Origin: an uncultured Candidatus Saccharibacteria bacterium
GTDB lineage: Bacteria; Patescibacteriota; Doudnabacteria; UBA920
Reading direction: 5' to 3'
Assembly: GCA_964384035.1 (NCBI GenBank)
Contig: CAYLIB010000001.1
Location: 48,532-112,531, forward strand
DNA: 64,000 bases
The position numbers were made by a program, and so were the translations under genes. Numbering within the stretch: position 1 is the first letter of the stretch; the number at the start of each line of letters is the position of its first letter. Below, piece by piece: positions 5,411-61,600 of the stretch. The notes beneath the pieces were generated by a model, which saw only the letters and a program-made list of their open reading frames with translations, did no database searches and was not told where the DNA came from.

Positions 5411-5827
5411 ATGGAGCTATCAACCTTACAAAACCTTATTTCTGCACTTCCAGATACACTTTTAACCGAATTAGTTATCAGGCTACGTCTTGATTCAGAA
5501 ATTTCCCTGGGGAAATCATCAAATTCAGAAATTTCTGCTCATTTAGTAGCCCACTTAAATCGTAGAAATCAAATATCTTTACTAACCGAAGCAATTACCG
5601 GACTCGCCCCTGGACTATTCACATATTCTTCTGGTGAAGAGATTCTTAATAGAAGAAATTTTCTTGCGGGAGAGATCACAAAAAAATTAAACGCTACAAA
5701 AATTTCTAGCTTGGCAGAAACTTTCATTTTCAGAAAATATATACCTAGAAATACCAGTGGCAACCTCATCCCATATCTAGTCTGCCATTTAGCAATCGTC
5801 TTAGAAAAAGAACAAGAACTTTCGTAA
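5411..5827 (+). CDS. hypothetical protein
   Basis: 138-aa ORF with no motif. The overlapping 5179..5493 ORF is the alternative. Confidence 0.3.
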   Translation: MELSTLQNLISALPDTLLTELVIRLRLDSEISLGKSSNSEISAHLVAHLNRRNQISLLTEAITGLAPGLFTYSSGEEILNRRNFLAGEITKKLNATKISSLAETFIFRKYIPRNTSGNLIPYLVCHLAIVLEKEQELS

Positions 5828-6474: not shown

Positions 6475-7893
6475 ATGTTCCGAAAATTAAAAAACCCACC
6501 CCTGTTTAACAAGAATACATCTAATCAAGAAAATCAGTTTTCACATCTATATAAGGTAGTCACAGGACTAATCATAGTTCTTTATATAACATCAATCTTT
6601 TTTCCTATAAAGGTCAGTCTCAATACCTCTCAACAATTTATAACAGGTTATAAATCAGATTTTTTAATAATTTTCCTTTATTTAAGCGATATTTTATTAC
6701 TTTGTTTATTTTATTTTCTTGTATTACAAAAAAAATTACTCTCAAAAAAAATAGTATATTTATGGGGATTATTTATTTTTTCCTCTTTATTAAGCATTTT
6801 TTATAAGGGACTTAATAATCTCGCCATTCCTATATACTATCTTGCTCTAATATCTTCAGGTTTTGTTACATATGAAACTGTACGCATTATCTTTAATAAT
6901 ATTCAGCTTAAAAAAATATTCATTAGTACATTTCTAATTCTCTCAGTTACTCAGTCATTGTTAGTAATATATCAGTGGAATAAACAACAATCATTTGGAT
7001 TATTTCACGTGGGAGAATCAAATATATCACGTGAAACAGCAGGAGTTGCCAAAATCGACACTCCACGTGGAAAACTAATACGTCCTTACGGCACTTTTCC
7101 GCACCCAAATATCCTTTCTGTATTTTTATTAACTGCATGGTTTATAGGATTTACCCTACTAAAACCCAATAAACATTTGATATATCCTCATATTTACGGG
7201 ATATTAACTACATTTTGCTTACTTCTAACATTTAGCCGATCCACCATCATAATTTGGACCATAAGCCTAATAGCGTTACTCCTATATAACATAATTAAGA
7301 AGCTTCACAGGAAACATCTATACTATCTAATAACTAGTTTAGTGACTTTATGTCTATTCATTACTATAAATTCACAATATCTATTAAATAGATATAACAG
7401 TGCATATACAGATGGGTCTTTAAATCTTCGTAATGCCTACAACCTATTCGCATATAAGTTTATCCAAAATTCTCCTATTTTTGGCATAGGGCCGGGACAA
7501 ACAATGTTTCAAATGAAACAAAACAACTATCTCAGCTTAAAAACATACGAAATTCAACCAATTCACAACTTCCCCCTACTTATATGGACAGAATTCGGGA
7601 TTATACCCCTTCTCATAATTTTATTTATAGCATTCCTCACTATAATGAATCTTTGGAAATCTTTTTATACAGCATTAAAAGATGATGAGAATAAATCTGA
7701 ATTATTCTTTTTAATGGTCTATATTTTCTCAATTCTTGCATTATCCCTTACAGACCACTACTTCTACACTTCTAGACAAGGAATATTGATTTTTTGGGGT
7801 ACCATCGGAGTGTCTTATTCAATACTTCTAAAACTCAACAAAAAAGATGTTTCAGATGAAACATCAATTTACGAGCCCCCTAGTAATAATTGA
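6475..7893 (+). CDS. polytopic membrane protein, O-antigen ligase / Wzy_C-like
   Basis: At least 10 hydrophobic helices. The large loop carries 'RPYGTFPHPN', which resembles the R..G.F.NPN motif of the O-antigen ligase family. Confidence 0.55.
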   Translation: MFRKLKNPPLFNKNTSNQENQFSHLYKVVTGLIIVLYITSIFFPIKVSLNTSQQFITGYKSDFLIIFLYLSDILLLCLFYFLVLQKKLLSKKIVYLWGLFIFSSLLSIFYKGLNNLAIPIYYLALISSGFVTYETVRIIFNNIQLKKIFISTFLILSVTQSLLVIYQWNKQQSFGLFHVGESNISRETAGVAKIDTPRGKLIRPYGTFPHPNILSVFLLTAWFIGFTLLKPNKHLIYPHIYGILTTFCLLLTFSRSTIIIWTISLIALLLYNIIKKLHRKHLYYLITSLVTLCLFITINSQYLLNRYNSAYTDGSLNLRNAYNLFAYKFIQNSPIFGIGPGQTMFQMKQNNYLSLKTYEIQPIHNFPLLIWTEFGIIPLLIILFIAFLTIMNLWKSFYTALKDDENKSELFFLMVYIFSILALSLTDHYFYTSRQGILIFWGTIGVSYSILLKLNKKDVSDETSIYEPPSNN

Positions 7894-42105: not shown

Positions 42106-42486
42106 ATGTCACCTAAATCCTCTATATTAATAACATCTTTTTTTGCACTTTTAGCCTTCGCCACTATAGAGAATCAGATCCTAGCTTTTGTAGGGGAAAA
42201 CACTCCAAACACCCCAGAAGTAGCCGGTGCTAGTATTGGTGCAATTGTTGAACCTACCCCCTTAAACACCGGTTGGGAGGAACTCAGAAAAGAACAAGAA
42301 AAGCTAAAAACTGAAAAAGAAAAAATAGAAGCTAGTAAAAGTTCTTTTACCAACTTCTTTGAACCCACAGAACGAAGTATTCGCTATCTATATATATTCC
42401 TATTCGTCTTCTTCTGCCTAGTTGTTATCAATCTCTTGCTCGACTTATACATCCTAAAATCCCAAAAGCGCAAAACTCATGCGTAA
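42106..42486 (+). CDS. hypothetical secreted/membrane protein with coiled-coil and C-terminal TM
   Basis: Signal peptide, 'ELRKEQEKLKTEKEKIEASK', C-terminal helix YLYIFLFVFFCLVVINLLL. Confidence 0.4.
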   Translation: MSPKSSILITSFFALLAFATIENQILAFVGENTPNTPEVAGASIGAIVEPTPLNTGWEELRKEQEKLKTEKEKIEASKSSFTNFFEPTERSIRYLYIFLFVFFCLVVINLLLDLYILKSQKRKTHA

Positions 42487-44014
42487 ATTTACAAATACTC
42501 TATTAGCCTTATTGTTAGTTCTAAGTAATTTATTTTTTCAACCAACTTTCACAACCCACAGCGCCACTCTTTCTCAGACCAGAGACACACTAATCGATCC
42601 GCGTCCCTCACAAGCGGTTGATCATTCTATAAACTTTACTACTGTAAACCTTATTCCTGTTTCAGGAAAAATAACACTTGAGTGGAAAGCCGGCAGCTTC
42701 AACATCCCCGGTACTCTAAGTTACCAGGATATAGATTTCAAAATAAACGGCACTGACCAATCCCTTGGTGCAACTCCAGGTACCGGTTTAGGATCAAATA
42801 TAGGAGTAAATATAATAAGCGGTACTAGCGGAAACATTACTTTCACCCTTAATGATACCAACAATATAGCTGGTGGAAGCACAATAACAATTCTTATAGG
42901 AAAAAATACCAATTACCAAACCACAGGCACAGAACAAATTACCAACCCCGTTGTAAATGGCTCATACACATACACTATTACTACAAAAAATGCTGTCAGC
43001 ACAACGATAGATTCACAAACGGGCGCAGTAAGTATTAACCCTACAGTTTCTGTAACAGGTAAAGTAGTACTCGGAATAGTTGCGACCCCAGACATTACAC
43101 CAAACGGAGGATCATTTGTAGATTATGTAGATGTAAATATTACCGATACCACCCCAGGAAGTACAATATATTTCACAACCGACGGTTCTACACCCACTAC
43201 TTCCAGTAATCTATATACCACACCCTTTACTCTATATTCCAACACAACAGTTAAAGCCTTCGCTACAGCACCTAGCTACGACGACAGTAGTGTCGCGACA
43301 GCAGTATTTAGTGTGACCCCTAGTGTACCCCCTGTAATCGGTTACGGACCAGAAAACCCAACACCGATTATTCACACCAACCAAAACGGGTTAGCTAATA
43401 TAAACCAAAAAGCAGTGGATATTATCCACACTTGCCCTAACAGTGTAGAAGTAATCCTCAAAATTCCTAGCAACTTTTACCCAGACCCACTTTCATTAAA
43501 CTTCTACTGTCTCCCCTGGAACACTTTACCCGAAACAGTTAGAAAGGCCGGTTCACTTAGCACACCGCCTGTTGCTGACACCGTAATTCTCATCACCGCC
43601 GAAGACAACAAAGGAAAAATCGTAGAATATTTACAAAATCCATTGACATTAAATATTACTTATACATCGGGTCATATTCAAAGCTTCATTTCAAACTCTC
43701 TTTATCTCAAAACCTATTTTTCAAATGAAAAAAATTGGTCAGATATCTCAGGTTTCTCCTCAAATCAAGAAAAAACTTTCTATACCGCGCAAATTAAACA
43801 CCTAAGCTACTTCGGAGTCTTTGGTCAAACACAAAAATTAGACTGCAAAACAGTAAAAGCAGATTTAAATTGTGACGGGAGAGTAAATTTAGTCGATCTA
43901 AGCATACTGCTTTACAATTGGGATATACCAAAGAATATAAAAGCAGATTTAAATAACGATACACGAGTAAATTTAGTAGATTTCAGTATTTTACTCTTCT
44001 ATTGGACAAACTGA
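42479..44014 (+). CDS. secreted protein with chitobiase/Fn3-like beta domain and C-terminal type-I dockerin (two Ca-binding repeats)
   Basis: Signal peptide. 'GGSFVDYVDVNITDTTPGSTIYFTTDGSTPTTSSNLYTTPF' is CHB_HEX_C-like. The dockerin repeats are 'DLNCDGRVNLVDLSILLYNW' and 'DLNNDTRVNLVDFSILLFYW'. Confidence 0.6.
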   Translation: MRKFTNTLLALLLVLSNLFFQPTFTTHSATLSQTRDTLIDPRPSQAVDHSINFTTVNLIPVSGKITLEWKAGSFNIPGTLSYQDIDFKINGTDQSLGATPGTGLGSNIGVNIISGTSGNITFTLNDTNNIAGGSTITILIGKNTNYQTTGTEQITNPVVNGSYTYTITTKNAVSTTIDSQTGAVSINPTVSVTGKVVLGIVATPDITPNGGSFVDYVDVNITDTTPGSTIYFTTDGSTPTTSSNLYTTPFTLYSNTTVKAFATAPSYDDSSVATAVFSVTPSVPPVIGYGPENPTPIIHTNQNGLANINQKAVDIIHTCPNSVEVILKIPSNFYPDPLSLNFYCLPWNTLPETVRKAGSLSTPPVADTVILITAEDNKGKIVEYLQNPLTLNITYTSGHIQSFISNSLYLKTYFSNEKNWSDISGFSSNQEKTFYTAQIKHLSYFGVFGQTQKLDCKTVKADLNCDGRVNLVDLSILLYNWDIPKNIKADLNNDTRVNLVDFSILLFYWTN

Positions 44015-44024
44015 TACAAAACAA

Positions 44025-44972
44025 ATGAAAAGCTCAATTATAAAAATATTCACTATTAGTTTCCTTTTAGGTTGTTATTTATTCATTGCAAAAGGGGCAC
44101 AAGCTGCGATCCTTCAATACGAAATTCCTAAAAACACCGTACGAGTAGGTGACTCGGTTACTATGAAAATAATACTTAATACAGAAGGTGAAAGTATAAA
44201 TACAGGATCAATAACGTCAATTATTCCAGAGAGTTTAGTTATACAAAATATATCCACAGCAAAATCCATCTTCAAATATTGGGTAAACAATCCAGACCAT
44301 CCATCCTCAAACATTATCAGTTTTACTGGTGGCTTACCCAACCCAGGATTCAACGGTACAAACGGTATAATAGGAGAAATCACTTTAAAACCCACCAAAG
44401 CTGGTAAATTCTCACTATATGCAGAGAGAGGTTCGCAAATCCTAGTAAACGACGGCTTTGGTACAAGTGCAAATGTGCAAATTCTCCAAAATACCCTGCT
44501 AGTTCTCGACCCTGGTAAAAACTACTCCCCCTTACCTTCAACCAAAGCAATAGACAACACCCCTCCTCACGACCTTATGCTAATTATTGGGAATAGCCAA
44601 TCAGAATTTGACGGTAAATATTTTGCTAGCTTCCGAGCAGAAGATGATGAATCAGGAATAGACCATTACGAAATAAGCGAAAAAATTAAAAACCAGAATT
44701 TAACTAACAAGGACCCCAACCCAAATGACAAGTCGCTAATATGGCGCACCGCAACAAGCCCATATATATTGGAAAACCAGGATAACAACACCTATGTTTT
44801 CCTAAAAGCCATAGATAAAGCAGGTAATACTTCTATTGTTTGGAAAATGCATGAAATTAAAAAAACCCCAAAGTTACCTTGGTTAATAATAATTATTCTT
44901 CTTGCACTCTTATTCATCACATATAAAGTAGGTCCTATATGGGTAAATAAAAAACTTAAAAAAAATTCATAA
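44025..44972 (+). CDS. membrane-anchored protein with a cohesin-like beta-sandwich domain (tentative)
   Basis: Signal peptide, a beta-rich N-domain (…GIIGEITLKPTKAGKFSLYAE…) and a C-terminal TM with basic tail (LPWLIIIILLALLFITYK…KKLKKNS). It is adjacent to the dockerin gene. Confidence 0.35.
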   Translation: MKSSIIKIFTISFLLGCYLFIAKGAQAAILQYEIPKNTVRVGDSVTMKIILNTEGESINTGSITSIIPESLVIQNISTAKSIFKYWVNNPDHPSSNIISFTGGLPNPGFNGTNGIIGEITLKPTKAGKFSLYAERGSQILVNDGFGTSANVQILQNTLLVLDPGKNYSPLPSTKAIDNTPPHDLMLIIGNSQSEFDGKYFASFRAEDDESGIDHYEISEKIKNQNLTNKDPNPNDKSLIWRTATSPYILENQDNNTYVFLKAIDKAGNTSIVWKMHEIKKTPKLPWLIIIILLALLFITYKVGPIWVNKKLKKNS

Positions 44973-45031
44973 ATAGTAAATAATGTGTTATAATTTTTTA
45001 AGAATTTCCTTACAATAGAAATAAAAATAAT

Positions 45032-46156
45032 ATGTTTCAAAAGTTAAAAAGCAAACAAATAATTAAAGTTTCCAAAATTGTTGTAGCAGCACTTGTCCTT
45101 GGTATATTTGGTCTCCAACCCGCACCCGTAAACGCTGCTTCACTAACAACTGTAAAAGATACCCTTACCAGAATCGAACAAGCCCAAACCGCAGACCATA
45201 CAATAACATTTACACTCCCAGGTGGAGCCTCAAGCTTCGTAGCTGGCGATAAAATGTCCATTGACTTCCCAGCAAACTTCGTAACCTCAACGGGCTGGGC
45301 AACCTCAGATTTCACCTTTAACGACGGTACTTCAAGAACCATAACCACAGTAGGCACCAACTCTACTCCTACCTGTACGGCTGGTACTAATAATGTTTCT
45401 GTAGAAATTACAACAGCAAGCGACCTATTTGTAATTACCGCCTGTTCTACCTTCACAGCAAACTCATCAGCCAACATTACATTCACCATTCAAGGTACTG
45501 GCGCTAACGGAACCCTCACGAACCCTTCTTCTCCTGAGACTTCCGTAGTGGCAATAGTAGGTGATGATAAAGGAAACGGGTTCGGTTCAGACGACGACAC
45601 CGCTTCCCTAGCTATCCCAATCATCGCAGACGATACAGTTACAATTACAGCTACCGTGGACCCAACTATTACCTTCTCAATATCAGATACAGCTATTTCA
45701 TTTGGAACCCTGTCTTCGGGAGCTGCGCGGTACGCTACTGGAGACGGAACCAGTACATCTACTGACCCCTCTGGTGGTGCTCACAACCTACAAATCTCTA
45801 CCAATGCCACCAGCGGTTACATCGTTACTTACAAAGGTGCAACACTAACCAGCGGAGCTAACACTATCGATGTTCCAGGTACATTCATAAACAACGACGC
45901 CAACGGTACTCCAGGACAAGAAGAATTCGCTCTTTCTGTAAACAGACAAACCGGTACCGGTACGGTTGCCGCCAACTACCAATACACCGACCCAGACTGG
46001 GACTTCGACGCCAACACTACCACTACCATTTACACCCAAACCGCAGCAACCAACACTGAAACTCTAGAAATTCACTACCTCGCTAATATAGCTGGCGCTA
46101 CTCAAGCTGGCACCTACACCACAGACGTTACTTACATAGCTACTGGAACGTTCTAA
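45032..46156 (+). CDS. secreted beta-rich surface protein, paralog 1
   Basis: Signal peptide with AxA site (PVNA/AS). T/S/G/N-rich. C-terminus '...GTYTTDVTYIATGTF'. The last 565 nt are identical to 47946-48510. Confidence 0.55.
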   Translation: MFQKLKSKQIIKVSKIVVAALVLGIFGLQPAPVNAASLTTVKDTLTRIEQAQTADHTITFTLPGGASSFVAGDKMSIDFPANFVTSTGWATSDFTFNDGTSRTITTVGTNSTPTCTAGTNNVSVEITTASDLFVITACSTFTANSSANITFTIQGTGANGTLTNPSSPETSVVAIVGDDKGNGFGSDDDTASLAIPIIADDTVTITATVDPTITFSISDTAISFGTLSSGAARYATGDGTSTSTDPSGGAHNLQISTNATSGYIVTYKGATLTSGANTIDVPGTFINNDANGTPGQEEFALSVNRQTGTGTVAANYQYTDPDWDFDANTTTTIYTQTAATNTETLEIHYLANIAGATQAGTYTTDVTYIATGTF

Positions 46157-46164
46157 ATACATTC

Positions 46165-46190
46165 AAAACCGCCCATAAGGGCGGTTTTAT
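46165..46190 (+). terminator. rho-independent terminator
   Basis: aaaaccgcccataagggcggttttatt. Confidence 0.55.
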
Positions 46191-46233
46191 TATTCCTCAT
46201 GTTATAATTCCCTTAGAATATTTTACTTAACCA

Positions 46234-47295
46234 ATGCCTAGCTCTAAATTCTTCGTTATTCGTATATTCTCTCTATTCGTTATTCTCTATTCGTTACTCT
46301 TCATTCCACGCGAAGCTAGCGCCCTTACCATATCTCCTCCCAGATTAGAGACCTCGGCAGACCCAGGTCAAACAATAGAACAAGAAGTAAAAATCATCAA
46401 TGAAGAAAGATCCTCACGAACACTCTATATTGTTCCTCAAAACTTTGAAGCCAAAGACGAAAGCGGAGAACCAAATTACGTCGAAGGCACAGAAAACCTA
46501 GCCGGTTGGATAAAAGTAGCAAAATCAGTAAATCTCGGACCAGGTGAAGAAAAATTTGTAAAATTTTCTATTTCGGTTCCACCCACTGCTGAACCTGGTG
46601 GATATTTTACAGCTCTATTCTTCCAAAGTGAACCCCCTAGCTTTGAACAAGGTGCTGGTATTGGTATAGGTAGCCAGTTAGGAAGTTTAATTCTTTTAAA
46701 AGTTAATGGTGCTATAGGAGAGCAAGCGGGTATACTCGAATTTGCTACTAAAAACAAAGATCGCACTTTCTTAAATCTACCTATAGAATTCTACTACCGT
46801 TTCCAAAACACAGGAGACACGTGGGTTAAACCTTTAGGTGAAGTCTTTATAACAAACACATTCGGAAAAAGAGTAAAACTCCTTACAGCGAACAGGCAAA
46901 AAGGAAATGTGCTACCCAAAAGCATTCGCAAATTCGAAACTGCATGGTTAAATAGCGGTGGAAATATAAAGGAAGACCCAAAAGGTGAAATTGAATACCC
47001 AAAACTAGAAGATTTCTGGGCAAATGTAAAATATCAATATAGCAATTTCGCTTTCGGACTCTACACTGCCAAACTCCATTTAGCTTACGGCACAAATCCT
47101 GTGCAGGTAGGAGAAACAACTTTCAAATTTATCGTATTTCCTTGGCAGCTCACATTAGTAAGTACCATTCTCGCCATAATTATCTTAATTATTCTGAGAA
47201 TACTTATTAAAAAATACAATCAAAGTATTATTAGAAAAGCCCAAAATCAAATTCAAAGTAAAGACAACCCTACTTCCAAACGAGGTAAAAAATAA
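46234..47295 (+). CDS. CscA/DUF916-DUF3324-like cell-surface protein with C-terminal TM anchor
   Basis: Signal peptide, 'ALTISPPRLETSADPGQTIEQEVKIIN', C-terminal TM with K/R tail (WQLTLVSTILAIIILIILRILIKKYN). Confidence 0.45.
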   Translation: MPSSKFFVIRIFSLFVILYSLLFIPREASALTISPPRLETSADPGQTIEQEVKIINEERSSRTLYIVPQNFEAKDESGEPNYVEGTENLAGWIKVAKSVNLGPGEEKFVKFSISVPPTAEPGGYFTALFFQSEPPSFEQGAGIGIGSQLGSLILLKVNGAIGEQAGILEFATKNKDRTFLNLPIEFYYRFQNTGDTWVKPLGEVFITNTFGKRVKLLTANRQKGNVLPKSIRKFETAWLNSGGNIKEDPKGEIEYPKLEDFWANVKYQYSNFAFGLYTAKLHLAYGTNPVQVGETTFKFIVFPWQLTLVSTILAIIILIILRILIKKYNQSIIRKAQNQIQSKDNPTSKRGKK

Positions 47296-47390
47296 AATAT
47301 AAAAAACACCAAATAGTTCTTTGGTGTTTTTTAAAAATTAAAAAATAATTTTATGTTATACTTTTTCTATAAAACAACTTTATAAATTCC

Positions 47391-48509
47391 ATGTTAAAGC
47401 TTCTAAACAAAAATCAAAAAATAACAAAGTTAGTTATCACTGCATTAATCCTCAGCGTGTTTGGTCTCCAACCTTCACCCGTAAACGCTGCTTCACTAAC
47501 AACTGTAAAAGACACCCTTACCAGAATCGAACAAGCCCAAACCGCAGACCATACAGTACAATGGACATTACCCGGCGGCGCATCTAGTTTCGTTGCTGGA
47601 GATAAGGCAAGAGTAGATTTCCCGGCAAACTTTGTTACTAGTACAGAATCGGGTTGGGTAGCCGGAGACTTCACGTACAACGATGGTACCTCAAGAACTA
47701 TTGTAGCAGTGGGAGCATCACCGTCATGTTCTGCAGGTGCCAACAATATTACTGTCCAAATAGACTCTGCTAATGACCAATTTATTATCACAGCCTGCGC
47801 TTCCTTTACCGCTAACTCCTCAGCTAATGTTTCATTTACTATAGACGGAACCACAACAGACGGAACCCTTACAAATCCTTCTTCCCCAGAAACATCCGTG
47901 GTAGCTATCGTCGGTGACGATCAGGGCGACGGCTTCGGAAGCAATGACGACACCGCTTCCCTAGCTATCCCAATCATCGCAGACGATACAGTTACAATTA
48001 CAGCTACCGTGGACCCAACTATTACCTTCTCAATATCAGATACAGCTATTTCATTTGGAACCCTGTCTTCGGGAGCTGCGCGGTACGCTACTGGAGACGG
48101 AACCAGTACATCTACTGACCCCTCTGGTGGTGCTCACAACCTACAAATCTCTACCAATGCCACCAGCGGTTACATCGTTACTTACAAAGGTGCAACACTA
48201 ACCAGCGGAGCTAACACTATCGATGTTCCAGGTACATTCATAAACAACGACGCCAACGGTACTCCAGGACAAGAAGAATTCGCTCTTTCTGTAAACAGAC
48301 AAACCGGTACCGGTACGGTTGCCGCCAACTACCAATACACCGACCCAGACTGGGACTTCGACGCCAACACTACCACTACCATTTACACCCAAACCGCAGC
48401 AACCAACACTGAAACTCTAGAAATTCACTACCTCGCTAATATAGCTGGCGCTACTCAAGCTGGCACCTACACCACAGACGTTACTTACATAGCTACTGGA
48501 ACGTTCTAA
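47391..48509 (+). CDS. secreted beta-rich surface protein, paralog 2
   Basis: N-terminal half is about 60% identical to paralog 1. The C-terminal 188 aa are identical. Confidence 0.55.
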   Translation: MLKLLNKNQKITKLVITALILSVFGLQPSPVNAASLTTVKDTLTRIEQAQTADHTVQWTLPGGASSFVAGDKARVDFPANFVTSTESGWVAGDFTYNDGTSRTIVAVGASPSCSAGANNITVQIDSANDQFIITACASFTANSSANVSFTIDGTTTDGTLTNPSSPETSVVAIVGDDQGDGFGSNDDTASLAIPIIADDTVTITATVDPTITFSISDTAISFGTLSSGAARYATGDGTSTSTDPSGGAHNLQISTNATSGYIVTYKGATLTSGANTIDVPGTFINNDANGTPGQEEFALSVNRQTGTGTVAANYQYTDPDWDFDANTTTTIYTQTAATNTETLEIHYLANIAGATQAGTYTTDVTYIATGTF

Positions 48510-48578
48510 AAAAACTAAAAGAGCTTTTGCTTAATGCAAAAGCTCTTTTGTTTTATTTCTACGTGTTAAAATAATCTT

Positions 48579-49676
48579 ATGCGTAACAAAATTTTATCTT
48601 CTATCTACTTATTCATCTTTATTTTTTCCTCCTTTTTTGGAGTAGCCAACGCACAAACACTGAATTCTACCAACTACAACCTAGAAAACTCGTCGTTTAA
48701 TTTCGGTGGCGAAGAAAGCAGCTCAACAAACTATAAATCGCAAGACTCAGTAGGTGACGCAAACGATTCAGGCTCAAGCTCTACGAATTACAAAGTCTTT
48801 CCTGGTACAATACAGCCCGTATATCCAGGTGTACCGGGTATACCAACCTTAACCAATACAGGTGGCACACTTTATAACTCCCTCGACTTTGTGGTCACAG
48901 AAGGCCCCGGAAACGCAAGCGACGTACTGTATGCAATAGCAATCTCGGACGACAACTTCACTACAACCTATTTTATTCAAACAGATGACACATTAGGAGC
49001 TAGCGCAGTTTGGCAAACTTATACCAACTGGGGAAGCGGAACTGGTGAAAGAGTTACGGGTCTTAAAAGCAACACCACTTACAAAATAAAAGTAAAAGCC
49101 CGCTTCGAAGCCGATACAGAAACCCCTTATTCTGTTGAAGCCAGTGCCGCTACAGCCAATCCTTCAATCTCAGTTAGCTTTGCTGGAATATCCAGCAGCA
49201 CCAGCGTAGAAGGCCAAACAACAACTATCACATCTACCGCAACAACTGTCCCCTTTGGCACTCTTATTGTAAGCACCCCCGCCGTAGGTGCTCAGAGAAT
49301 AACAGTTAGCACAAACGCCGTTAACGGATACACAACAACTATCCAACAAAACCAAGACCTGACCCAAGCTCAAAGCAAAACCATAGACGGCGTATCCGGC
49401 ACCAACGCCTCCCCCTCCAGTTTTCCCGGAAGTGTTTCTCGTGGAGCGTTTGGTTACCACACTAGCGACACTACTCTATGCACTGGCACTACTGGAAGGT
49501 TTACTGCTGACGACACTTACGCAAAAATAACCACCACAGCGCTAGAAATTGCCTGTAACACAGGAACAGCCTCAAGCGAACAAACTGACATAGTATACAA
49601 ACTTCTAATTGGACCCCTACAAGAAAACGGCGCCTACACAAACGACGTAACATTCATAACCACTGGCACCTTTTAA
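48579..49676 (+). CDS. secreted beta-rich surface protein, related family (C-terminus '...GAYTNDVTFITTGTF')
   Basis: Signal peptide, T/S-rich, shares the C-terminal TGTF motif with the paralogs. Confidence 0.5.
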   Translation: MRNKILSSIYLFIFIFSSFFGVANAQTLNSTNYNLENSSFNFGGEESSSTNYKSQDSVGDANDSGSSSTNYKVFPGTIQPVYPGVPGIPTLTNTGGTLYNSLDFVVTEGPGNASDVLYAIAISDDNFTTTYFIQTDDTLGASAVWQTYTNWGSGTGERVTGLKSNTTYKIKVKARFEADTETPYSVEASAATANPSISVSFAGISSSTSVEGQTTTITSTATTVPFGTLIVSTPAVGAQRITVSTNAVNGYTTTIQQNQDLTQAQSKTIDGVSGTNASPSSFPGSVSRGAFGYHTSDTTLCTGTTGRFTADDTYAKITTTALEIACNTGTASSEQTDIVYKLLIGPLQENGAYTNDVTFITTGTF

Positions 49677-49741: not shown

Positions 49742-50776
49742 ATGCGCATCTCTAAATTCTCCATTAGTCATTCGTTACCTGTCCTCCGTAGCTTCAGCGT
49801 AGGAGGATTCGTCATTCTTTATTCTCTATTCGTCATTCTCTATTCACCATTCCCTAAAACTACTTTCGCCCAGTCAACATTGCCGACCGAAAAACCCTAC
49901 CTAAGCCAAAACGCCCTCTCCATAGCACCGTTTATAATCGAAGAGAGCATGGAAAAAGGACAAACAATAGAAAAAGAAATAGAAATTAGCAATATAGGAG
50001 ACGTCCCACTACCCCTAAGTCTCAGTATCAACGACTTCATTCCAGTAGATAAAGAAGGCCATGTCCGCTTTCTTTCCGAGGAAGAAAAAAAAGATGACAG
50101 ATTTTCTCTCTCTCACTGGATCACAATCACGGAACAACCTGAATTCAACATCAAAGCACTAAGCAAAACAAAAGTAAAATTCAAAATTACCGCCCCCGTC
50201 TCGGCTGAACCAGGAACTCATTATGGTGGTTTATTATTTGGCTACGAACCAACAGTCCAAAATATTCCTGGAACGAAAGTAAAGCAGAAACTCGGCGCAC
50301 TTGTGATCATTACACTAGGCAAAGCTAAAGAGCAGGGAGAAATAAGCGGGTTTTTAGTAAACCAAGACTGGAAATCTAAAAGTATATTGGAATTCTCAAC
50401 AATATTTAAAAATACAGGGAGAAGTAGAGTAATTCCTAAAGGAGAAATAGAAATAAGAAATTGGTACGGAAAAATTATCTCAAGTAGCCACATAAACGTC
50501 GACGGTTCGATTGTACTTCCAGAAACCGAACGAAACTTCGTTACTAAATTGGAAAAACCCTTTTTATTAGGCTATTATACAGCAGAGAGTTTTGTACAAT
50601 TTGGTAATCCTAAACAAGAAAAAAGGGTAAAAATGAGCTTCTGGGTACTACCAGTAAAACCCATAATTTCTGTCTTAGCTTTTATTTCACTATTCACCCT
50701 AAGTCTATATTTTGGCCTCAAACGTTACAATCGCTGGCTAATAAAAAAAGTCGGCTTAGAAACTAAAAACCAATAA
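49742..50776 (+). CDS. CscA/DUF916-like cell-surface protein with C-terminal TM anchor
   Basis: 'LSIAPFIIEESMEKGQTIEKEIEISNIGDVPL' plus a C-terminal TM and basic tail. Confidence 0.45.
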   Translation: MRISKFSISHSLPVLRSFSVGGFVILYSLFVILYSPFPKTTFAQSTLPTEKPYLSQNALSIAPFIIEESMEKGQTIEKEIEISNIGDVPLPLSLSINDFIPVDKEGHVRFLSEEEKKDDRFSLSHWITITEQPEFNIKALSKTKVKFKITAPVSAEPGTHYGGLLFGYEPTVQNIPGTKVKQKLGALVIITLGKAKEQGEISGFLVNQDWKSKSILEFSTIFKNTGRSRVIPKGEIEIRNWYGKIISSSHINVDGSIVLPETERNFVTKLEKPFLLGYYTAESFVQFGNPKQEKRVKMSFWVLPVKPIISVLAFISLFTLSLYFGLKRYNRWLIKKVGLETKNQ

Positions 50777-51891
50777 TGTCTTTAAAATTTAAACCCAAGT
50801 TTTTCCGCATATTTCTAGTTTCCCTACTTGTTACTATTCACTTGTTACTTTTTACTAGCAACACTAAAGCGTTGACCGTCTCCCCCGTTCGCTTAGAGCT
50901 TAGCGGAGACGCAGGAGATACCGTATTCGGAAACTTCAAACTCTTCAACGAAAAGGATGAAAATTTAAAATATTTCATTGTTTTCCGAACCTTCTCTGCA
51001 AAAGACGAGACTGGGGAACCCAATTTCCCGGATACCCAAGATGAATTCATATCATGGGTAAATGTCTCTCCGGAAGTAACCGTACCAGCAAAAGACTATA
51101 AAGAACTTACATTCAAAGTAAATATCCCCAAAAATGCAGATCCGGGTGCTCACTTTGCTGCGATATTCGCTTCCACAGTTCCCCCAAAAGATGGCGAAAA
51201 TTCATCAAACCTAAAAATAACAGGCGAAGTTGGTACTTTAATTCTTTTCCGAGTAAACGGTGATTTCAAAGATGGCGCGGACATATTAGAATTTAATACC
51301 AAAGATAAAAAAAACAGCTTTACAGAATTACCAGTTTGGTTCTACTACCGCTTCCAAAACAGTGGTAATAACTACATAAAACCCCTTGGCGACATAATTA
51401 TAAAAAATTTCTTCGGGGGAACAAGCAAAGTAATTCCAGCCAACCGAGATAAAGGCAACATCTTACCACAAAGCGTTAGACGATTTGAAGCAGCATGGTG
51501 GGAAGGAAGTGGTGCAAAAAACCAAAGCCCAGATTTTAAAGGTTATAGTGAACCACAAACATTCTTAGAGCATGTTTCTCACCAATGGAACAACTTTGCC
51601 TTCGGAAAATACACCGCAACCCTCAACCTAGCATATGACAAGTCTACAGACAAAGCCGCCACAGCAACAATAAGCTTCTGGTTAATTCCTTGGCATCTAT
51701 TATCAGTTATAGCAGCAGTAGGTACAGTATTCTTTGGCGGAATTATTTTCATAGCTATCGTCATTGCCGTATTCTTTATGAAAATTCAAGACAAAAAGCC
51801 CAAGAAAAAGAAGAAAACTACAAAACCAACAAGAAAAAAGGCTATTCCAGTCGCAGAAAACGAAGACTCAAAACAAGATGAACAGAATTAA
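50776..51891 (+). CDS. CscA/DUF916-like cell-surface protein with C-terminal TM anchor and poly-Lys tail
   Basis: 'ALTVSPVRLELSGDAGDTVFGNFKLFN', 'GTLILFRVNG', 'WFYYRFQNSGNNYIKPLG' (shared with the 46234 protein), TM + KKPKKKKK tail. Confidence 0.45.
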   Translation: MSLKFKPKFFRIFLVSLLVTIHLLLFTSNTKALTVSPVRLELSGDAGDTVFGNFKLFNEKDENLKYFIVFRTFSAKDETGEPNFPDTQDEFISWVNVSPEVTVPAKDYKELTFKVNIPKNADPGAHFAAIFASTVPPKDGENSSNLKITGEVGTLILFRVNGDFKDGADILEFNTKDKKNSFTELPVWFYYRFQNSGNNYIKPLGDIIIKNFFGGTSKVIPANRDKGNILPQSVRRFEAAWWEGSGAKNQSPDFKGYSEPQTFLEHVSHQWNNFAFGKYTATLNLAYDKSTDKAATATISFWLIPWHLLSVIAAVGTVFFGGIIFIAIVIAVFFMKIQDKKPKKKKKTTKPTRKKAIPVAENEDSKQDEQN

Positions 51892-52607: not shown

Positions 52608-55600
52608 ATGGGAGAAAATAAAATTAAACAACTTTTGACTTCAGTCCAAAAGCCTGGAAGCCTCGTGCTACTGGCCGTACTTTTGTTTGGTTCTATTTTC
52701 CCCCAAAGCTTCGCTCTCCCTGTAAAAACTGCCGAAGCTGCAACTGGTGTCCCACTTCAAATAAACTTCCAAGGAAGATTAACTCTTGCAACAGGTGCTG
52801 TTGGTACAAACGTTGCTAATGGTACCTACGCCATGCGTTTCAAACTCTATGACGCACTCACTTCCGGAACCCTACTCTGGACAGAAACCTACGACCAAGC
52901 ACCAGTAGACCCATGTCAAAAAGTTCAAGTTACTGCCGGAGTATTTAACGTAAAACTCGGATCTTGTGCAACTTTAAGCGGAGTAGATTTCACAAGCGAC
53001 AGCCTATACCTATCGGTAGACTTCGCACCAACCGGTACTAGCTACGACGGTGAAATGTCCCCAAGAAAGCGTTTAGTTTCCGCTCCTTACGCAATAAACG
53101 CAAATAACTTAGCGGGAAACGGTAAAATAGACCTCACCAACACAGCAACCACCACAACTCCGTTCAAACTAACTGCAAATACTCTCACCACAGGAAGCGG
53201 ACTTACTCTGACCACAACCACCAATTCCGCAGCAAACACCGCTTGGACAGGTGCTACGCTTACCTTTAACAACGCACAAGCTTCTACTGCTGTATCGAGC
53301 GGTTCTATTGCTGGTCTAGACATTCAGTTCAACCAAAATACTGCCATCGCTGGTAACACCGAAACCGCTGCAAGAATAAACGTAAAACAAAATGACTCTT
53401 CTTCCACAGACGCAACTGTAGCTTCTCTCTTAGACCTCGCCAACAACGACACCGCTACAGGAAACCAAATAACAGTTTCAGATGCATTGAAAATTACAGG
53501 GAGCAATGTTACCAACGGCATTAACCTTTCAGGAACCTTTGCAAGCAATCTTATTACCTCAACAAACTTCACAGTAGCTCAGAGTGGGCAAATAACATCA
53601 GCTAACTTAGGTGGAAGCGGAACCCAGTGTTTGCAAGCTAGCAACACCGGTGTAATTTCTGGTACTGGCGGCGCTTGCGGCGGTACCACCACCCTCCAAT
53701 CAGCCTACGGTAACGACGTGGACGGAAGCGACACCACCATCTCCCTTACCACAGCCGACGATTCAGTAATAATAACTAACCCATCTTCTTCTGGAACTGA
53801 CTCAACTTTCGTGCTCAAAGTCGACCAAGCCGCAAGTGGCGCAGTCGATTCACTTATTGTAAACAACGCAGGCACCGGAACCCTTGCCACCTTAGACGCT
53901 TCTAACGCTTCTGGTAACGGTGTTTCCATAGATGTTCAAAGCTCTTCATCTTCCCAATATGCCCTAAAAGTAACCAGCAACAACGGCTCCACCAATGGCC
54001 TATACGTTAGAGCCGATGGAAACGTAGGTATAGGAACCACCAGTCCAACTCAAAAATTATATGTTGCTGGTGATGCATTAATAGGTAACACAGGTACCGG
54101 AAAATTATACTTCGACGATACAAATGGTTGGATTGCCAGAACCGCCGCTGGTAACACACTCCAATTCTCACCAAGTGGAAATGCTACTTCAATGTCCCTT
54201 ACTTCAAGCAGATTACACGTTGGATCCGACCCCGCCACAACTGGTTATACCGCAAACTTTTTCGTCATAGGTGCCAACGCTGGTTCTGGTGGTGCACAGC
54301 AGACCATCTGGTTTGGAGCATCTGCCAGGGGTGGAAATACAGGTAGTGGACACAACACCGTGCTAAGCGGTGGCGCGGGGTCTACTGCCACAACCGGTTC
54401 AATTGGTGGGAATGTTAATATTTACGGCGGCAACGCAAATGGAACAGGCGACAATAATGGTGGATCAATCTATTTAGACGGTGGCACAGCAACAGGCACA
54501 GGAACCGCTGGTAATATTTTACTAGCATCAACTACCGGTAAAGTCGGAATTGGAACATCTTCTCCATCTGCACTCCTTCATGTACAGAAAGACAATATCG
54601 GTAGCACTTCCACAGACGGTGAAGCATTGGTAAACAGTACCGCAGCAGGAGTCGGAGCACAACAATTCTCACCACGACTTCGCTTCACTGGCCAAGGCTG
54701 GAAAACAAACGCTACCGCCGCAAGCCAAACAGTCGACTGGGCTATAGAAAACCAGCCAGTTCAAGGAGCTGCCAACCCTTCAACAAATTTATCTTTTAAC
54801 TACCAAATAAACGGTGGAGGATATTCAAACATCCTAACCTTAACTTCCGGAGGGGTAATTGGTACCGACGCTGTTTCAACTGCGAATGCAAGTTTCGGTG
54901 TTATAAATTCTAGTGCCCTCAGAACCGGTATGAAAATTTCGAGCGATGATATCTATTTTACCCAAAACAGTTCCGACAAACTTCGCTTGTTAAACGGAAT
55001 TGGTATAAGAACACGTTCTGACAACTATTTTGGATGGAGCTCAGGAGCAGACGTCTCTTCAGCAACCGACTTATTCCTAAGAAGGAATGCTGCAGCAAAT
55101 CTCGCTCTGGGAGCAGTAGATGCTGCATCACCAGTGGCACAAACCATCTCTGTTCAAAACGTCTCTACAGGCACAAGCGACACCGCAGGGGCAGCATTAA
55201 GTATTGCCGGCTCTCAAGGGACTGGTACCGGTGTTGGTGGTTCCATCCTCTTCAAAACGGCACCAGCTGGATCCACAGGTTCTTCTCAAAACGCCCTAAC
55301 AACAGCCATGACAATATTAGGCAGTGGGAAAATCGGAATAGGTACCACCACTCCGTCAGACCTATTGGATGTAAATGGCGCAATTAACTCTACTGCACTA
55401 ACCATCAGCCAAACTTCTCCCTCCTCAACCAACAGATACATAATAGGTAACAGTAACGGTTTTGCACTACGAAGCAACATTAGCTACGGATGGGGCTCTG
55501 GATCGGGAGATGCTGGTGGCTCAAAAGACACCGGTATCTCTCGTGGAGCTGCAAACACCGTCTACATTGGAAACGGTACTGGTGGGGACTCAAGTGGTAC

Positions 55601-58600
55601 TTTAGTTGCAACAAATATAGGAATTGGATCCACTTCTCCTGGTTCCAACCTAGATATCGACAGAGCAGACGCATCTTCTATAACAGCAGAACAAATTCTC
55701 TTCAGAAGCAACAACACTGCACAAACCCTAACAGATGGAACAACAATAACAAATTGGAGAAACAATCAGTTCCTAGCTCCTACCATAAATGGCGTGGCTG
55801 GGGGAGGCACTGAAACAGTTACCAATGCTGCTACGTTATATGTAGATAACGCTCCCGCAGGTAGCAACATTACAATTACTAACCCATATGCTCTCTGGGT
55901 AGATGAAGGCGCAGCAAGATTCGACCGTGAATCTATTGGCACCACCTCAACTGATGGCATAATTCTACAAAACAGCACCGCAGCAGGCGCAGGTGCACAA
56001 CAATACTCCCCAAGAATCCGCCTTACCGGCCAAGGTTGGAAAACAGATGCTACGGCCGCAAGCCAAACCGTAGACTGGATAATGGAAGCTCGCCCAGTTC
56101 AAGGCGCAGCAAATCCTACTGTAAACTTAGCAATCCTCGCCCAAGTTAATGGTGGTGGTTATACAAGCGCAATTGCCCCAGGTCAAATACTTGCACCAGG
56201 AGGAGCCTCCACTTCTCAAGCCGCACCTCAATATTCAGCAATAAACAACTCAGCCTATGGACTTAAGATAGGAGGAGGAAACGCCGGTAACGCAGTTGCA
56301 CTCGTTGGTAATAACACTTCTTACTTAAATATCGATGCAAATGTAAACGCCATTGGTATAAAATCAAACGCCACACTACGATGGGGTGCAGAAAACTTTG
56401 GCACTACCCAAGTATCCCTCTCTTCTCCCTCGAATGACAACCTATTGCTTAGAGACTCAAGTGTTACTGGTCCAGGTAACTTTATCATCGGTTCAACCTC
56501 AACTTTACCAGGCACCTCTGGAAAAGGTGTGTTAGTGGTTGGATTAGGCACTGTACCAACATCCTCACCAGCCGATATCTTCCAAATATATGCAGCAGAC
56601 TACGCTGCCGGGGATACTCGTGCTTTCTTAAGAACAGAATCCGGTACTGCACAAATAATAGGAAACAACTCTATTGGAACTGCGCCTTCAACAGGCACAG
56701 ATACCGCTGGAACAAACTTCAGTCTTTTCGGTGGCCAAGGAACAGGTACTGGAATAGGTGGTAATGTAGTTCTACAAGCAGCTTACCCAAGCACCACTGG
56801 CTCTACTGCAAATTCACTCACAGATGTATTCACAATACTCGCTTCCAACAAAGCAACATCTGGCACTCAAAACTTAGTTTCTATAACTCCGACTGTAAAC
56901 CAATCCTCCACTGCTGCATACAATGCTCTATTAGTAAACGTAACCGAAACAGCAACGGGTAGTGGTGCAAAAAACCTTCTTAAATTACAAGTTGGTGGCA
57001 CAGATAAATTTAACGTAAGTAACTCCGGCGTAATCACTTCTAGCTCACTCGCAGGTGGTGGAACTTTATGTTTACAAACCGATAACAATGGTGTCATATC
57101 TCCCGCTGCATCTGCCTGTGGATCAGCCTCAACCACCCTCCAATCAGCCTATGGGAACGACGTAGATGGCTCAGACGCAACCATTTCTCTTACCACAGCA
57201 GACGACTCCATAATAGTAACCAACCCATCTTCCTCTGGCACAGACTCTACCTTCACTTTCAAAATCAACCAAGCAGCTTCTGGTGCTGTAGACGCTCTCA
57301 TCATAGACAATGCAGGAACTGGCACACTTGGCACCTTTGACGCCTCAAACGCCTCTGGCAATGGTATATCTATAGACGTACAAAGCTCCTCTGCCTCTCA
57401 ATATGGTTTAAGAGTAACGGCAAACAATGGTGCTACCAATGCACTATGGGTAGGCGGCGATGGCAGGGTTGGTATTGGTGATGTAAATCCAGCAAGTCTC
57501 TTCACCGTAGGATCTGGAGATTTGTTCCAAATAAATACCACAGGTCAAATAGGTTCCCAGCAAGCCCCACTCTCTGACTATCTTTTCGCACTTGCAGGTA
57601 CCACAGGCAACGACAACAGCAGAATCATAGATATAACTCAGGAAAATGATGAAGTAGAAGATTCAACTGTAATTAATATAGTCAACACAGCCAATGCAGG
57701 CACAATTGCCTCTGGTGCTACAAGAAATATTAAAAATATTTACACCTCACTTACGCCAACTATAACTTTTAGCACTACTGGCGTACAGGCTTCTGCCAAT
57801 ATTTACGGAGCTGACAACAATGTTTCTTTAGCAAATGTAAGCATACCCAATGTTCCCACGTCGAGAAGCAGGACAGTCAACTCTTATGGTAGTAGCTCAA
57901 CGGTAAGTGCAGGTATTACACTTAACGACACCAATGGTGGTTCGACGATTACCCTTAATACATATGGTACATACGGAGCCGTGACCGCAAGTCCCACTTT
58001 AACAGCATTGTCTACATCCACAAACGCTACCTATGCCGCAGGTTATTTTAATAACACTTTAAGCTCAGCGGGAAATGCCTTTTTTAATCCTGGAGCCTTT
58101 GGCATTATAGCTATAACAAATGGAAATTTAACCACCACTGGCGGTACTTCTCATACGGGTGGATATTTTGATGTTGGTGGTACAGCAGTAAACAATTACG
58201 GTATTCAAATTAACAGTGTAACAGCAGCTACAAACAACTACGGATTATATATGGATAGTATTGCCTCTGCTGCTTCTAACTATGCCATATACTCAAACGC
58301 TGCCGCTCAAAGCTATTTTGCAGGGAATATAGGTATCGGTACCACCGTCCCAGATTCTCAATTACACATTGGTGCTACCACAGGCTCTCTAACTACTAGT
58401 ACATCTATAAATATAAGCAAAATAAACTTCGCATCTGCCTCTACCATTGCAGGTTCCGGTGCTCAAATCTATGGACAGTTCATAGATATGTCCAACATTA
58501 CCGGTGCTGCCGATACCGCCGTAGTAGCCAGCGCAAAATATCTCCTTCCTAGTCAAACAAACTCTACTATCAATGCGTACAATTACGTAGGCGCAACAGT

Positions 58601-61600
58601 CAGTGGCGGAACATTAACCATGAACAACGCCAGTGGTGCACTCAATTACACAGGCTTCCAAAACACCAGTCCAGCAATTGTTGGTACGAACGGTAGTGTC
58701 ATTGCAAACGGATTCAAAACCACCAATGGCACAGTTACAACTACCGGCACTCAGGCTGGTCTAGATATCACCACCAGCACCATTACAACAGCTGGAAATC
58801 AATATGGTGTTAATGTAAACGCTGTAGGTATTGGAGCTGGTACTCTTAATGCTCTAAAAATTTCTAACATCACCGCAGGTGCAGGTACTGAAAACGCTAT
58901 TCAAATCGGTACAGGTTGGGACAAGCAAATAAATGGTAATGGTTGGAATGTGGATGGAAGTGGTAACCTAACCGTAACCTCATGTACCGGTTGTGGTGGT
59001 GGTTCAGGCTCACTAGACAGCATTACTGCGGCAACAGCGGACGACACCAACAACGACAATACCAACAAGCAAATCGCTTGGGATTGGTCTACACCAACCA
59101 CACAAACTGCATTTAAATTACAAAACACAGGAACAGGGCTTACCTCTGGCTCCATCTTCAATGTATCTTCCGCAACAACCAGCACTGTCGCAACCAACGG
59201 TATTGTTTCTTTGAATGCTTCTGGTAACTACACATCTACTTCAAATGTTGGATTACTTCAAGTCGCAGCAAACGCCACTACAGCTGGAACCGTAGCAAAG
59301 TTCAGCGGTACTGCACTTACTACTGGTACTGGAGTATTCATGCAAGGTGGTACAGCCATGACCACAGGTTCAGTACTACAATTAGCAAGTACAACCTACA
59401 ACCACGGCAACGCCACAGAAACCGGTAACCTTCTAAATATAGCTTTCACCGACGCAACCAATGGTACTGCTACCAGCACAACCAACGGTATAAACATTAC
59501 CCCAACAATAAACGTTACTACTGGTGCAAGTGGAGCTAAAACAATAAACGGCATAAAAATAAGTGCACCAACCCTAACAGCATGTACCGGCGGTTCAACT
59601 TGTACCTATGCAGGATTAAATGTAGATACTTCCGGCACACTTGCAAACACAACAATCTATTCAGCCTTATTTAGTGGTGGCAATGTGGGTATTGGCACTA
59701 CAGCCCCAACCCAAATACTCCACGTACAAAATGGCTCAGAGTTTATTAATCTTACAAGCTCCTTTACTCCAACCACTCTCGCAGGTGGGTTCGACACAAG
59801 TGGACAAAACATAAACACTGTCTTCGTTGCTGGAAAATACGCCTTCATTGGTCAATCCACCAACGCCGGCACCTGTTCCGGCACTACAGTTACCGGTTGT
59901 GAATTTAGCATTTGGGACATCCACAACCCAAACAACCCACTCGCAGTAAGCGGAGTAAACATTGCAAGTACGGTTAAGACAATATATGTTTCTGGCAAGT
60001 ACGCTGTCATTGGTCGTATAGCAGATGCTGGTACCTGTACCACCAGCACCATTACCGGTTGCGAACTTATGATCTACGACATAACCAACCCAAACAGCCC
60101 AAGCCTTCTCTCTGTAGATGGTGGCTTTAACCAAGACATTAACTCCCTGTTCATTCAAGGCAAACTTCTCTTCGTCGCCTCCAACACCGACAACTCCACT
60201 GGTACAGAACTTAAAATTTACGACCTCTCTAACCCAACTACCCTTGCAGTTATCGGTAGCATAAACACAGCAGACGCTACATCTGGTGAAGGTGCAATAA
60301 AATCTGTTTACGTTCAAGGTCGTTATATGTACTTAGGTCTTTCCTCCACAACTGGTACCGGTTGTACCTCTGGCGATGCTACTAGTTGTGACTTCAGAAT
60401 CTACGACATTAACGACCCATTTAACCCAACCTTCAAAGGTGGTACAAACCCTGGCACAGACGTAAACGCAGTTTCAGCAAACGGCAAATATGCTTACGCA
60501 GGTTTCGCTTCTGTCTCTGGAAACGACTTCCAAATCTATAACATCGCCGACCCAACCGCTCCAACAGCGACAGCAGGAAGCGATCTTTCTACCGGTGTCT
60601 TAACACTTCAAATTCAAGGAAAATACGCTTACATTGGTAAAACTTCAGCAAGCGGTAACGACTTCCAAATACTAGACATAACCGACCCAACCGCAACCCC
60701 AGTAAACGCCGGCGGTAGCGACATAACCTTCGACGTAAAATCTGTGTTCATCTCCGGAAAGTACGCATACATTGGTATTGCAAACACAGCAGACACCGCA
60801 AAAGAATTAAGAGTTCTAGATATTGCCGGAGTAGACACCCCAACCATAACAACCGGAAACGCTGGTATAGGTAACCTTCAAGTAACCGACAACGCACGCA
60901 TAGACAGCGACCTCCACGTTGCCGGTAGCATAAACGTTGGTCTTGGCGGTATCCAAAGCAGTGGCCCAATCTCCATAGAAAACACCCTCCAAGGCAACAG
61001 TAGTGGTAACGGCGTAGCTGGTATCTACGGTAACTACACCTTCAACAACACAACCAGTTCAGTCTTCCAATACGGCAACCGTTTCATTTCCAACATAACC
61101 GCAGTAGAAGACAGCAACGTAGACTCTACATACATTGGCCAACTCATCCGTATAGTAGACACCGACTGTGATACAGGTGCTACTACCCTAGACTGTGACA
61201 ACACAGTAAGAGGTCTCGAAGTCCAAAGTTGGACCGGCAACAACACCGCAGGTACCAACACCGCTATTGCCGGTTTCGGTAAAACCTTCGGTCTCCAGGG
61301 TACAACAGACGCCCTAGCCGGTGGTGTAAGCCAACCAGCCGCAGTCTTCGCAGATCTAGATAACGGTTCCGCGGCCACAGTAGGTAACGCTATCCGCGCC
61401 TATACCGACAACGCAACAAGCGCAGACTTAGTAAGCTTCTACCAAGAAACCACAGCATACACAGGAACTGGTTTACTTATGAACTTCGGTAACAATTCTG
61501 GTTCCTACTCGGGTAACTTCATTGACTTACAAAAAGCAGGCTCCAGCAAGTGGAAAATAAATTATGATGGTACAAAAATTACTCAGACCATCTCGCCAAC

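Follow-up and report, generated by a model that had tools for sequence, protein, structure and literature searches.

A tandem pair of PamB-like pilin genes from a Patescibacteria genome with two stable N-domain types and a linker and C-terminal domain probably kept identical by recurrent gene conversion

How can two neighbouring genes be identical over their 3′ halves, down to every synonymous site, and be separated by old divergence over their 5′ halves? This question is raised by A1 and A2, two tandem pilin genes with a third gene, B1, between them, in a 64,000-nucleotide (nt) stretch of DNA from an uncultured Candidatus Saccharibacteria bacterium (Patescibacteriota; Doudnabacteria; GenBank assembly GCA_964384035.1, contig CAYLIB010000001.1, positions 48,532 to 112,531 of the forward strand), hereafter the window, within which positions are counted from the first letter. 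Our answer, to which we give a probability of about 80%, is that the shared segment is subject to recurrent gene conversion, i.e. concerted evolution, in a pair of pilins whose N-domains remain of two stable types.

First, we compared the two genes at the nucleotide level. The two copies of the tract (Table 1) match over 565 nt with zero mismatches, the longest perfect run at an offset of 2353 nt, exactly as claimed in an initial annotation of this DNA. The tract ends 1 nt past the stop codons (46154-46156 and 48507-48509), and just downstream of it the flanks of A1 and A2 are unrelated. At the other end it starts at codon 188 (D188), one residue before a predicted inter-domain strand (residues 189-196); five of the seven positions just upstream of 45593 are mismatched and upstream nucleotide identity falls to about 60-80%. 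The last 187 residues of both proteins are thus identical. The antisense open reading frames (ORFs) at 45845-46039 and 48198-48392, which had also been pointed out, are present with identical translations, but do not constitute independent evidence because both lie wholly within the tract. By contrast, the protein identity of about 60% initially given for the 5′ halves was too low: we found about 72% over residues 1-187, with 54.5% in the signal-peptide region and 76% in the mature N-domain (codons 36-187), for 85% over the whole proteins. By exact k-mer extension, the 565-nt pair is the sole exact repeat of at least 80 nt in the window. A default repeat search returned a 300-nt family at 76% instead of the 565-nt pair, and a self-BLAST with a 95% filter missed the tract because BLAST fused it with its diverged flank.

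What do these genes encode? Residues 239-374 of A1 match the NCBIfam model NF058581.1 CPR_Pam_pilin_C (“Pam pilus system pilin subunit”) with 64.1 bits for a cut-off of 55, and A2 carries the same residues across this region. No Pfam match was obtained for the A proteins in a Pfam scan, and a PDB sequence profile search with the pilin alignment gave no match in a PDB copy that contained no Pam structures. The possibility that the A proteins are divergent WxL-domain proteins was dropped after the NCBIfam match to the Pam pilin C-domain. The AlphaFold (AF2) model of A1, with a predicted local distance difference test (pLDDT) score of 88.8, consists of a putative signal-peptide helix, a beta-sandwich domain at residues ~41-178, the linker strand 189-196 and a second beta domain at residues 213-372. 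Placed on this model, the identical segment is the predicted linker strand together with the whole predicted C-terminal domain. The putative Sec signal peptide of A1 has a basic N-terminus, a VNA/AS motif and a hydrophobic segment that the model folds into a helix at residues 6-26. A1 has more than 400 homologs; those with named records are mostly from Patescibacteria and a few are labelled otherwise.

Pam pili were described in Candidatus Mycosynbacter amalyticus, with the pilins PamA and PamB and the chaperones PamC and PamD (Troman et al., bioRxiv 10.64898/2026.03.03.709456). In this system the pilins are encoded with PapD/FimC-like chaperones bearing a C-terminal membrane helix, each subunit donates its linker strand to the C-terminal domain of the following one, stretches of PamA and of PamB occur within single filaments, and PamB is a 38.7 kDa protein (bioRxiv 10.64898/2026.03.03.709456). 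A1 and A2 belong to the same size class as PamB. At our locus the pilins likewise stand beside PapD/FimC-like chaperone candidates with a C-terminal membrane helix. Indeed, the B1 model (pLDDT 89.8) shows two beta domains in a chaperone-like fold and a C-terminal helix at residues 304-344 that would form a transmembrane (TM) anchor, B2 matches Pfam PF06030 WxLIP_PGBD (32.5 bits, cut-off 27.3), and both B2 and B3 align with B1. Altogether, profile hidden Markov model (HMM) matches and predicted folds mark A1 and A2 as tandem PamB-like subunits encoded in a pilus operon of the pam type. By analogy with Pam pili, we infer that A1 and A2 would assemble into filaments by donor-strand exchange, with strand 189-196 as the probable donor strand.

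We then looked at the locus in other genomes, as the initial annotation had suggested. Related loci were gathered from a 22-sequence pilin alignment, and two syntenic relatives were compared with the window: L001 (ENA ERZ1758445, a SPAdes contig at ~4x coverage) and L002 (GCA_964434195.1); a scan of metagenome contigs with six close orthologs found no relatives. The order A1-B1-A2-A3 is the same in the three genomes, and both relatives repeat the paralog-identical tract with the same 5′ edge. The exact within-genome match is 565 nt in the window, 569 nt in L002 and 562 nt in L001, where two further mismatches lie within the last 4 nt, and in all three genomes the type-specific differences end with the first base of codon 187. 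The two tract copies of one genome are 99.8-100% identical, versus 81-87% for copies from different genomes. Accordingly, quartet sites in the tract group the sequences by genome (74/107/101) rather than by the alternatives (1/0/0), and the synonymous divergence (dS) is 0 within genomes, with a proportion of synonymous differences (pS) of 0.00-0.01, versus 0.72-1.10 between them. The neighbouring genes B1 and A3 show a between-genome dS of 1.0-2.9, comparable to that of the tract.

The rest of the two genes tells a different history. Quartet sites place the N-domain cores together by type and the downstream flank by position (43 versus 0, window versus L002). Together with the conserved gene order, this shows that the duplication predates the split of the three genomes. 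Since the tract is identical within genomes and yet 13-19% different between them, conversion must have been repeated, separately in each lineage. The claim of a gene conversion restricted to the C-terminal half thus holds, with the same tract and the same edge codon in three diverged genomes, but it was described as very recent, and this part needs correction: conversion there was, although not as a single recent event, as the tract has been homogenised in each lineage.

Could the same pattern arise from independent recent partial duplications, or from one chance conversion per lineage, without any sustained process? Formally, one full-length conversion per lineage gives the pattern. However, all three lineages are homogeneous at once: pooled, they show no interior difference in ~1,690 sites, which sets an upper bound of ~0.2% on paralog divergence against 13-19% between genomes. 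Moreover, the edge falls at the same codon in the three genomes, the N-cores, flanks and gene order date the duplication before the split, and other lineages hold intermediate, decaying states of the kind expected of a continuing process. We therefore consider chance events very unlikely. The simultaneous homogeneity of three lineages and their common edge argue that conversion is frequent relative to mutation.

An explanation by purifying selection on the protein or the messenger RNA alone, without recombination, can point to the C-terminal domain, where conservation across the family is highest. It is refuted by the synonymous sites, identical within genomes and at a dS of 0.7-1.1 between them, and we regard it as practically ruled out. 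In addition, residues 160-186, immediately upstream of the tract, differ between A1 and A2 at three positions and are thus near-identical as protein, but their nucleotides are heavily different. For this same reason, namely near-identical protein on both sides of the edge and nucleotides that diverge heavily upstream of it, the edge is a recombination edge and not a selective one.

An assembly artefact also has to be weighed, in which duplication or collapse of one 3′ half, or a wrong path through a repeat loop, would make the identity or the tandem layout unreal. A 565-nt exact repeat is longer than usual reads, L001 is a low-coverage contig, interior variants could have been merged and the number of passes through the loop is inferred. 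Nonetheless, no linear path is possible with fewer than two tract copies, because the unique segment made of B1 and the A2 5′ half joins the tract at both of its ends. Three assemblies from different samples have the same layout and 5′ edge, each with its own tract sequence, and L001 retains two differences at the tract 3′ edge. Furthermore, assemblies of other lineages resolve paralog pairs at 84-99% identity, the window holds no other long exact repeat, and a collapse would hide at most ~1-2% divergence, not the 13-19% seen between genomes. An artefact is thus, in our view, a most improbable source of the pattern.

Upstream of the tract, the N-domains are of two types. Type alpha is carried by A1 of the window, A1 of L002 and A2 of L001, and type beta by A2 of the window, A2 of L002 and A1 of L001; in the N-domain core, 39-40 quartet sites support grouping by type versus 5-9 for the alternatives. 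Between types, pS is 0.63-0.70, i.e. saturated, dS exceeds 1.4 and the ratio of nonsynonymous to synonymous divergence (dN/dS) is 0.09-0.13; within one type across genomes, dN/dS is 0.025-0.07. Given this saturation and these low ratios, both types are old and under purifying selection. The alpha/beta order of the L001 pilin genes (4313-5437 and 6647-7768) is opposite to that of the window and L002, as judged by three markers that keep to position, namely the neighbouring genes, the sequence downstream and a signal-peptide indel of 2 residues. This swap is not an assembly ambiguity because the longest exact match between the two L001 pilin genes upstream of the tract is 19-20 nt. The cassette exchange put forward in the initial annotation is borne out to this extent and no further.

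The 5′ halves are also unevenly diverged. The N-blocks, which reach from the last signal-peptide residues into the first residues of the mature protein (45107-45202 and 47460-47555), are identical at 93 of 96 positions in the window, and between the window and L001 their shared substitutions group by genome (11 versus 1-2 for the alternatives); the N-block is less uniform in L001 and L002 than in the window. The N-block is thus a second, short zone that is partly homogenised. Each gene is therefore built from a position-specific leader, a concerted N-block, a two-type N-domain core and a concerted, identical linker and C-domain.

Such a mosaic had been likened to contingency or surface-variation loci. 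A programmed locus of this kind, in which an expressed pilin is rewritten from variant cassettes to give antigenic variation, would account for a variable segment between conserved blocks in genes for surface filament subunits, and for the N-domain types swapped in L001; direct repeats of 565 nt could also yield deletion or amplification variants. However, the N-domain types number just two, each is conserved in all three genomes at the low dN/dS given above, and the values between types do not indicate diversifying selection on the variable region. Both A1 and A2 are complete, full-length genes with a terminator-like hairpin close behind each, the rewritten part is the conserved assembly module and not the variable part, and no silent or truncated cassettes, hypervariable segment or further tract copies were seen in the 64 kb window. 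The likeness does not hold up against two stable types under purifying selection, and we judge a contingency locus improbable. Two other candidates were set aside: a diversity-generating retroelement, as the copies are without any mismatch and no reverse transcriptase was noticed near the locus, although none was searched for, and inversion switching, as the repeats are direct and not inverted.

We propose the following mechanism for the recurrent conversion of the tract. Homologous recombination between the direct repeats, probably of the RecA type, would repeatedly copy the segment encoding the linker and C-domain from one gene to the other, so that it would evolve as a single unit in each genome and drift between genomes. 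On the 3′ side, the limit would lie at the stop codon, where the duplicated homology ends. The 5′ limit would be set by the synonymous divergence of the N-domain core, which would block the extension of the heteroduplex, and the edge would have been held at codon 187/188 since before the split of the three genomes because strand exchange cannot cross the saturated core. The type swap in L001 would use the N-block and the tract as flanking homology, possibly by excision via one homogenised block and reintegration via the other.

As for function, the repeats should delete B1 and the A2 5′ half, yet the layout has been kept over a dS of ~1, which suggests selection to retain both. Thus, both subunits appear to be needed. 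Sharing the same donor and acceptor modules, subunits of types alpha and beta could be interchangeable in polymerisation and chaperone binding and could share filaments, which we hold to be about evenly balanced between true and false. It is also our inference that compatibility of the module is selectively favoured and is not a neutral by-product of homology. A bolder proposal, which we put forward tentatively and consider rather unlikely, is that the locus is a modular device for pilus diversification, with a shared polymerisation module (donor strand and acceptor domain) that conversion maintains and alternative N-domain “heads” that are co-assembled, swapped between expression positions, gained or lost. 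If so, recombination between the 565-nt repeats would give rise to subpopulations that differ in having one, two or more types of head, this could tune pilus binding and hence the host range of the episymbiont, and the recurrence of domain-wise conversion in at least five other lineages of the Candidate Phyla Radiation (CPR) would mean that Pam pili generally evolve in this way.

We surveyed 80 loci from species-representative genomes, in which 26 paralog pairs were comparable. A domain-wise loss of synonymous divergence between tandem paralogs was found in several unrelated lineages (L023, L015, L035, L046 and L077; Table 1), in two over the C-domain and in three over the N-domain. Long exact tracts join the tandem pilin paralogs of L023, where they lie in the C-domain, and of L035, L046 and L077, where they lie in the N-domain. 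Mosaic conversion is thus a habit of the family that does not always fall on the assembly module.

Several points weigh against our interpretation. Identity is read from assemblies, and short reads do not phase differences deep within a 565-nt repeat; neither a literal 100% nor the copy number of the repeat is certified, and a divergence of ~1-2% may have been merged. Strictly, one full-length conversion per lineage suffices, and the frequency of conversion is our deduction. The adaptive reading is weakened because L035, L046 and L077 keep the N-domain identical and the C-domain different. Finally, the assignment of the donor strand depends on an AlphaFold monomer and on analogy with published filaments.

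Table 1. Features of the pilin locus in the window and domain-wise homogenised paralog pairs in other CPR lineages (for the latter, positions are those of the paired segments in the locus named, and pS is that of the identical or less diverged domain versus the other)
Feature	Sequence	Position	Strand	Remarks
Promoter-like site upstream of A1	window	44966..44994	+	TTCATA-17-TATAAT with TG, 10/12; consensus match only
A1, PamB-like pilin, N-domain type alpha	window	45032..46156	+	374 aa; ORF, NF058581 match, AF2 model
N-block of A1	window	45107..45202	+	signal-peptide end and first mature residues
N-domain core of A1, type alpha	window	45203..45592	+	groups with L002 A1 and L001 A2; pS 0.81 versus A2
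Identical tract, copy 1	window	45593..46157	+	codon 188 to stop + 1 nt; exact match, AF2 model strands
Terminator-like hairpin after A1	window	46165..46188	+	identical in L002
B1, membrane-anchored PapD/WxLIP-like chaperone candidate (PamC/D-like)	window	46234..47295	+	353 aa; between the tract copies
A2, PamB-like pilin, N-domain type beta	window	47391..48509	+	372 aa; ORF, 85% identical to A1
N-block of A2	window	47460..47555	+	
N-domain core of A2, type beta	window	47556..47945	+	groups with L002 A2 and L001 A1
Identical tract, copy 2	window	47946..48510	+	exact 565-nt match
Terminator-like hairpin after A2	window	48516..48550	+	
A3, third, divergent pilin-family gene	window	48579..49676	+	365 aa; 24% identical to A1
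B2, chaperone-like, C-terminal TM segment	window	49742-50776	+	344 aa
B3, chaperone-like, C-terminal TM segment	window	50776-51891	+	371 aa
Giant ORF	window	52608-63047		3479 aa, directly 3′ of the operon
C-domain homogenised	L023	8566-9029/9796-10259		pS 0.09 versus 0.66; 464 nt exact, A1-equivalent residues 217-370
C-domain homogenised	L015			pS 0.27 versus 0.69
N-domain homogenised	L035	7016-7483/8096-8563		pS 0 versus 0.43; 468 nt exact, A1-equivalent residues 37-202
N-domain homogenised	L046	109-1299/1282-2472		pS 0 versus 0.24
N-domain homogenised	L077	5491-6276/8000-8785		pS 0 versus 0.31

The remaining genes of the operon deserve a brief description. A3 scores 165 with the family HMM, has a weak NCBIfam PamT match at its N-terminus and takes no part in conversion. 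The giant ORF may be the counterpart of the “tail fibre-like protein” described as a conserved neighbour in the Pam paper. Among the two pilin genes A1 and A2, a promoter-like site was found upstream of A1 only. A repeat with a period of 14 nt (ATTCGTTATTCTCT-like) is present at 46261-46306 and 49814-49859, at the 5′ end of the B1 and B2 coding sequences, where it encodes hydrophobic leader segments of the FVILYS type, the period not being a multiple of three.

On the 5′ side of the pilins, the region 42479-44972 holds two genes, one for a protein of 511 aa with a dockerin-like module at its C-terminus and one for a membrane-anchored protein of 315 aa, whose N-domain aligns with a weakly cohesin-like protein of L001 and L002. 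Both are only ~41-44% identical to their L001 and L002 counterparts, unlike the pilin region, which shares ~84% DNA identity with L002. A gene of 394-396 aa found in both L001 and L002 is missing from the window.

Pam pili were first described in 2026 and are thought to make the first contact between CPR episymbionts and their hosts. Our analysis indicates that some CPR lineages have two subunits that have their assembly module in common but differ in their outer domain, of which two alternatives are conserved. Two outer domains predict mixed or block filaments with two surfaces, and the N-domain would be the functionally differentiated part. The locus also offers an unusually clean case of bacterial concerted evolution confined to one structural module, and an edge kept at one codon over a synonymous divergence of ~1 per site is useful for understanding how divergence limits conversion tracts. 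On the practical side, these pilin genes will confuse ortholog trees and short-read assemblies.

The locus can finally be compared with known systems. As in Pam pili, we find a putatively secreted subunit of ~38 kDa in which a linker strand connects a beta-sandwich N-domain to a C-domain of truncated immunoglobulin type, with PapD-like chaperones carrying a C-terminal membrane helix and a giant fibre-like protein nearby, and named relatives that are mostly CPR. While Pam filaments have been published, the pilus discussed here is a predicted one. Moreover, the published PamA and PamB are dissimilar, whereas here a tandem PamB-like pair combines an identical linker and C-domain with two N-domains. 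The Pam paper makes no mention of paralogs, recombination or gene conversion (bioRxiv 10.64898/2026.03.03.709456); the tract bounded by a module, its edge conserved across genomes and the swap of N-domain types are new for Pam pilins.

The WxL/Csc clusters of Firmicutes include a WxL-interacting protein with DUF916 and DUF3324 (PMC10599100). Our locus differs in that its pilins are without a WxL-domain match and no LPXTG protein was noted; WxL-domain proteins beside a WxL-interacting protein, the arrangement of these clusters, were not found at the locus. A literature search on WxL and Patescibacteria returned nothing relevant.

Duplicated bacterial genes are known, if not commonly, to evolve in concert, examples being tufA/tufB and the tandem flagellin genes fla (PMC6053082). 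A genome-wide survey counted 26 long-lasting cases, mostly subunits of complexes and including tandem flagellin genes (Wang and Chen 2018, PMC6053082). As for tufA/tufB and fla, the paralogs studied here are closer to each other than to their orthologs even at synonymous sites, the duplication is older than the split and the products are parts of stable assemblies; as for the fla flagellins, they are a tandem pair of filament subunits. Unlike in these examples, conversion here covers one structural module with a sharp, conserved edge, and the other domain is of two old types.

In Neisseria, many silent partial cassettes (pilS) rewrite the variable part of one expressed pilin gene (pilE) and thereby give diversity. 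The two systems are alike in that pilins are altered by non-reciprocal homologous recombination and that conserved flanks guide the exchange of a variable segment. The pilin pair described here nevertheless differs from pilE/pilS, as two complete genes homogenise their conserved assembly part and their variable parts are stable.

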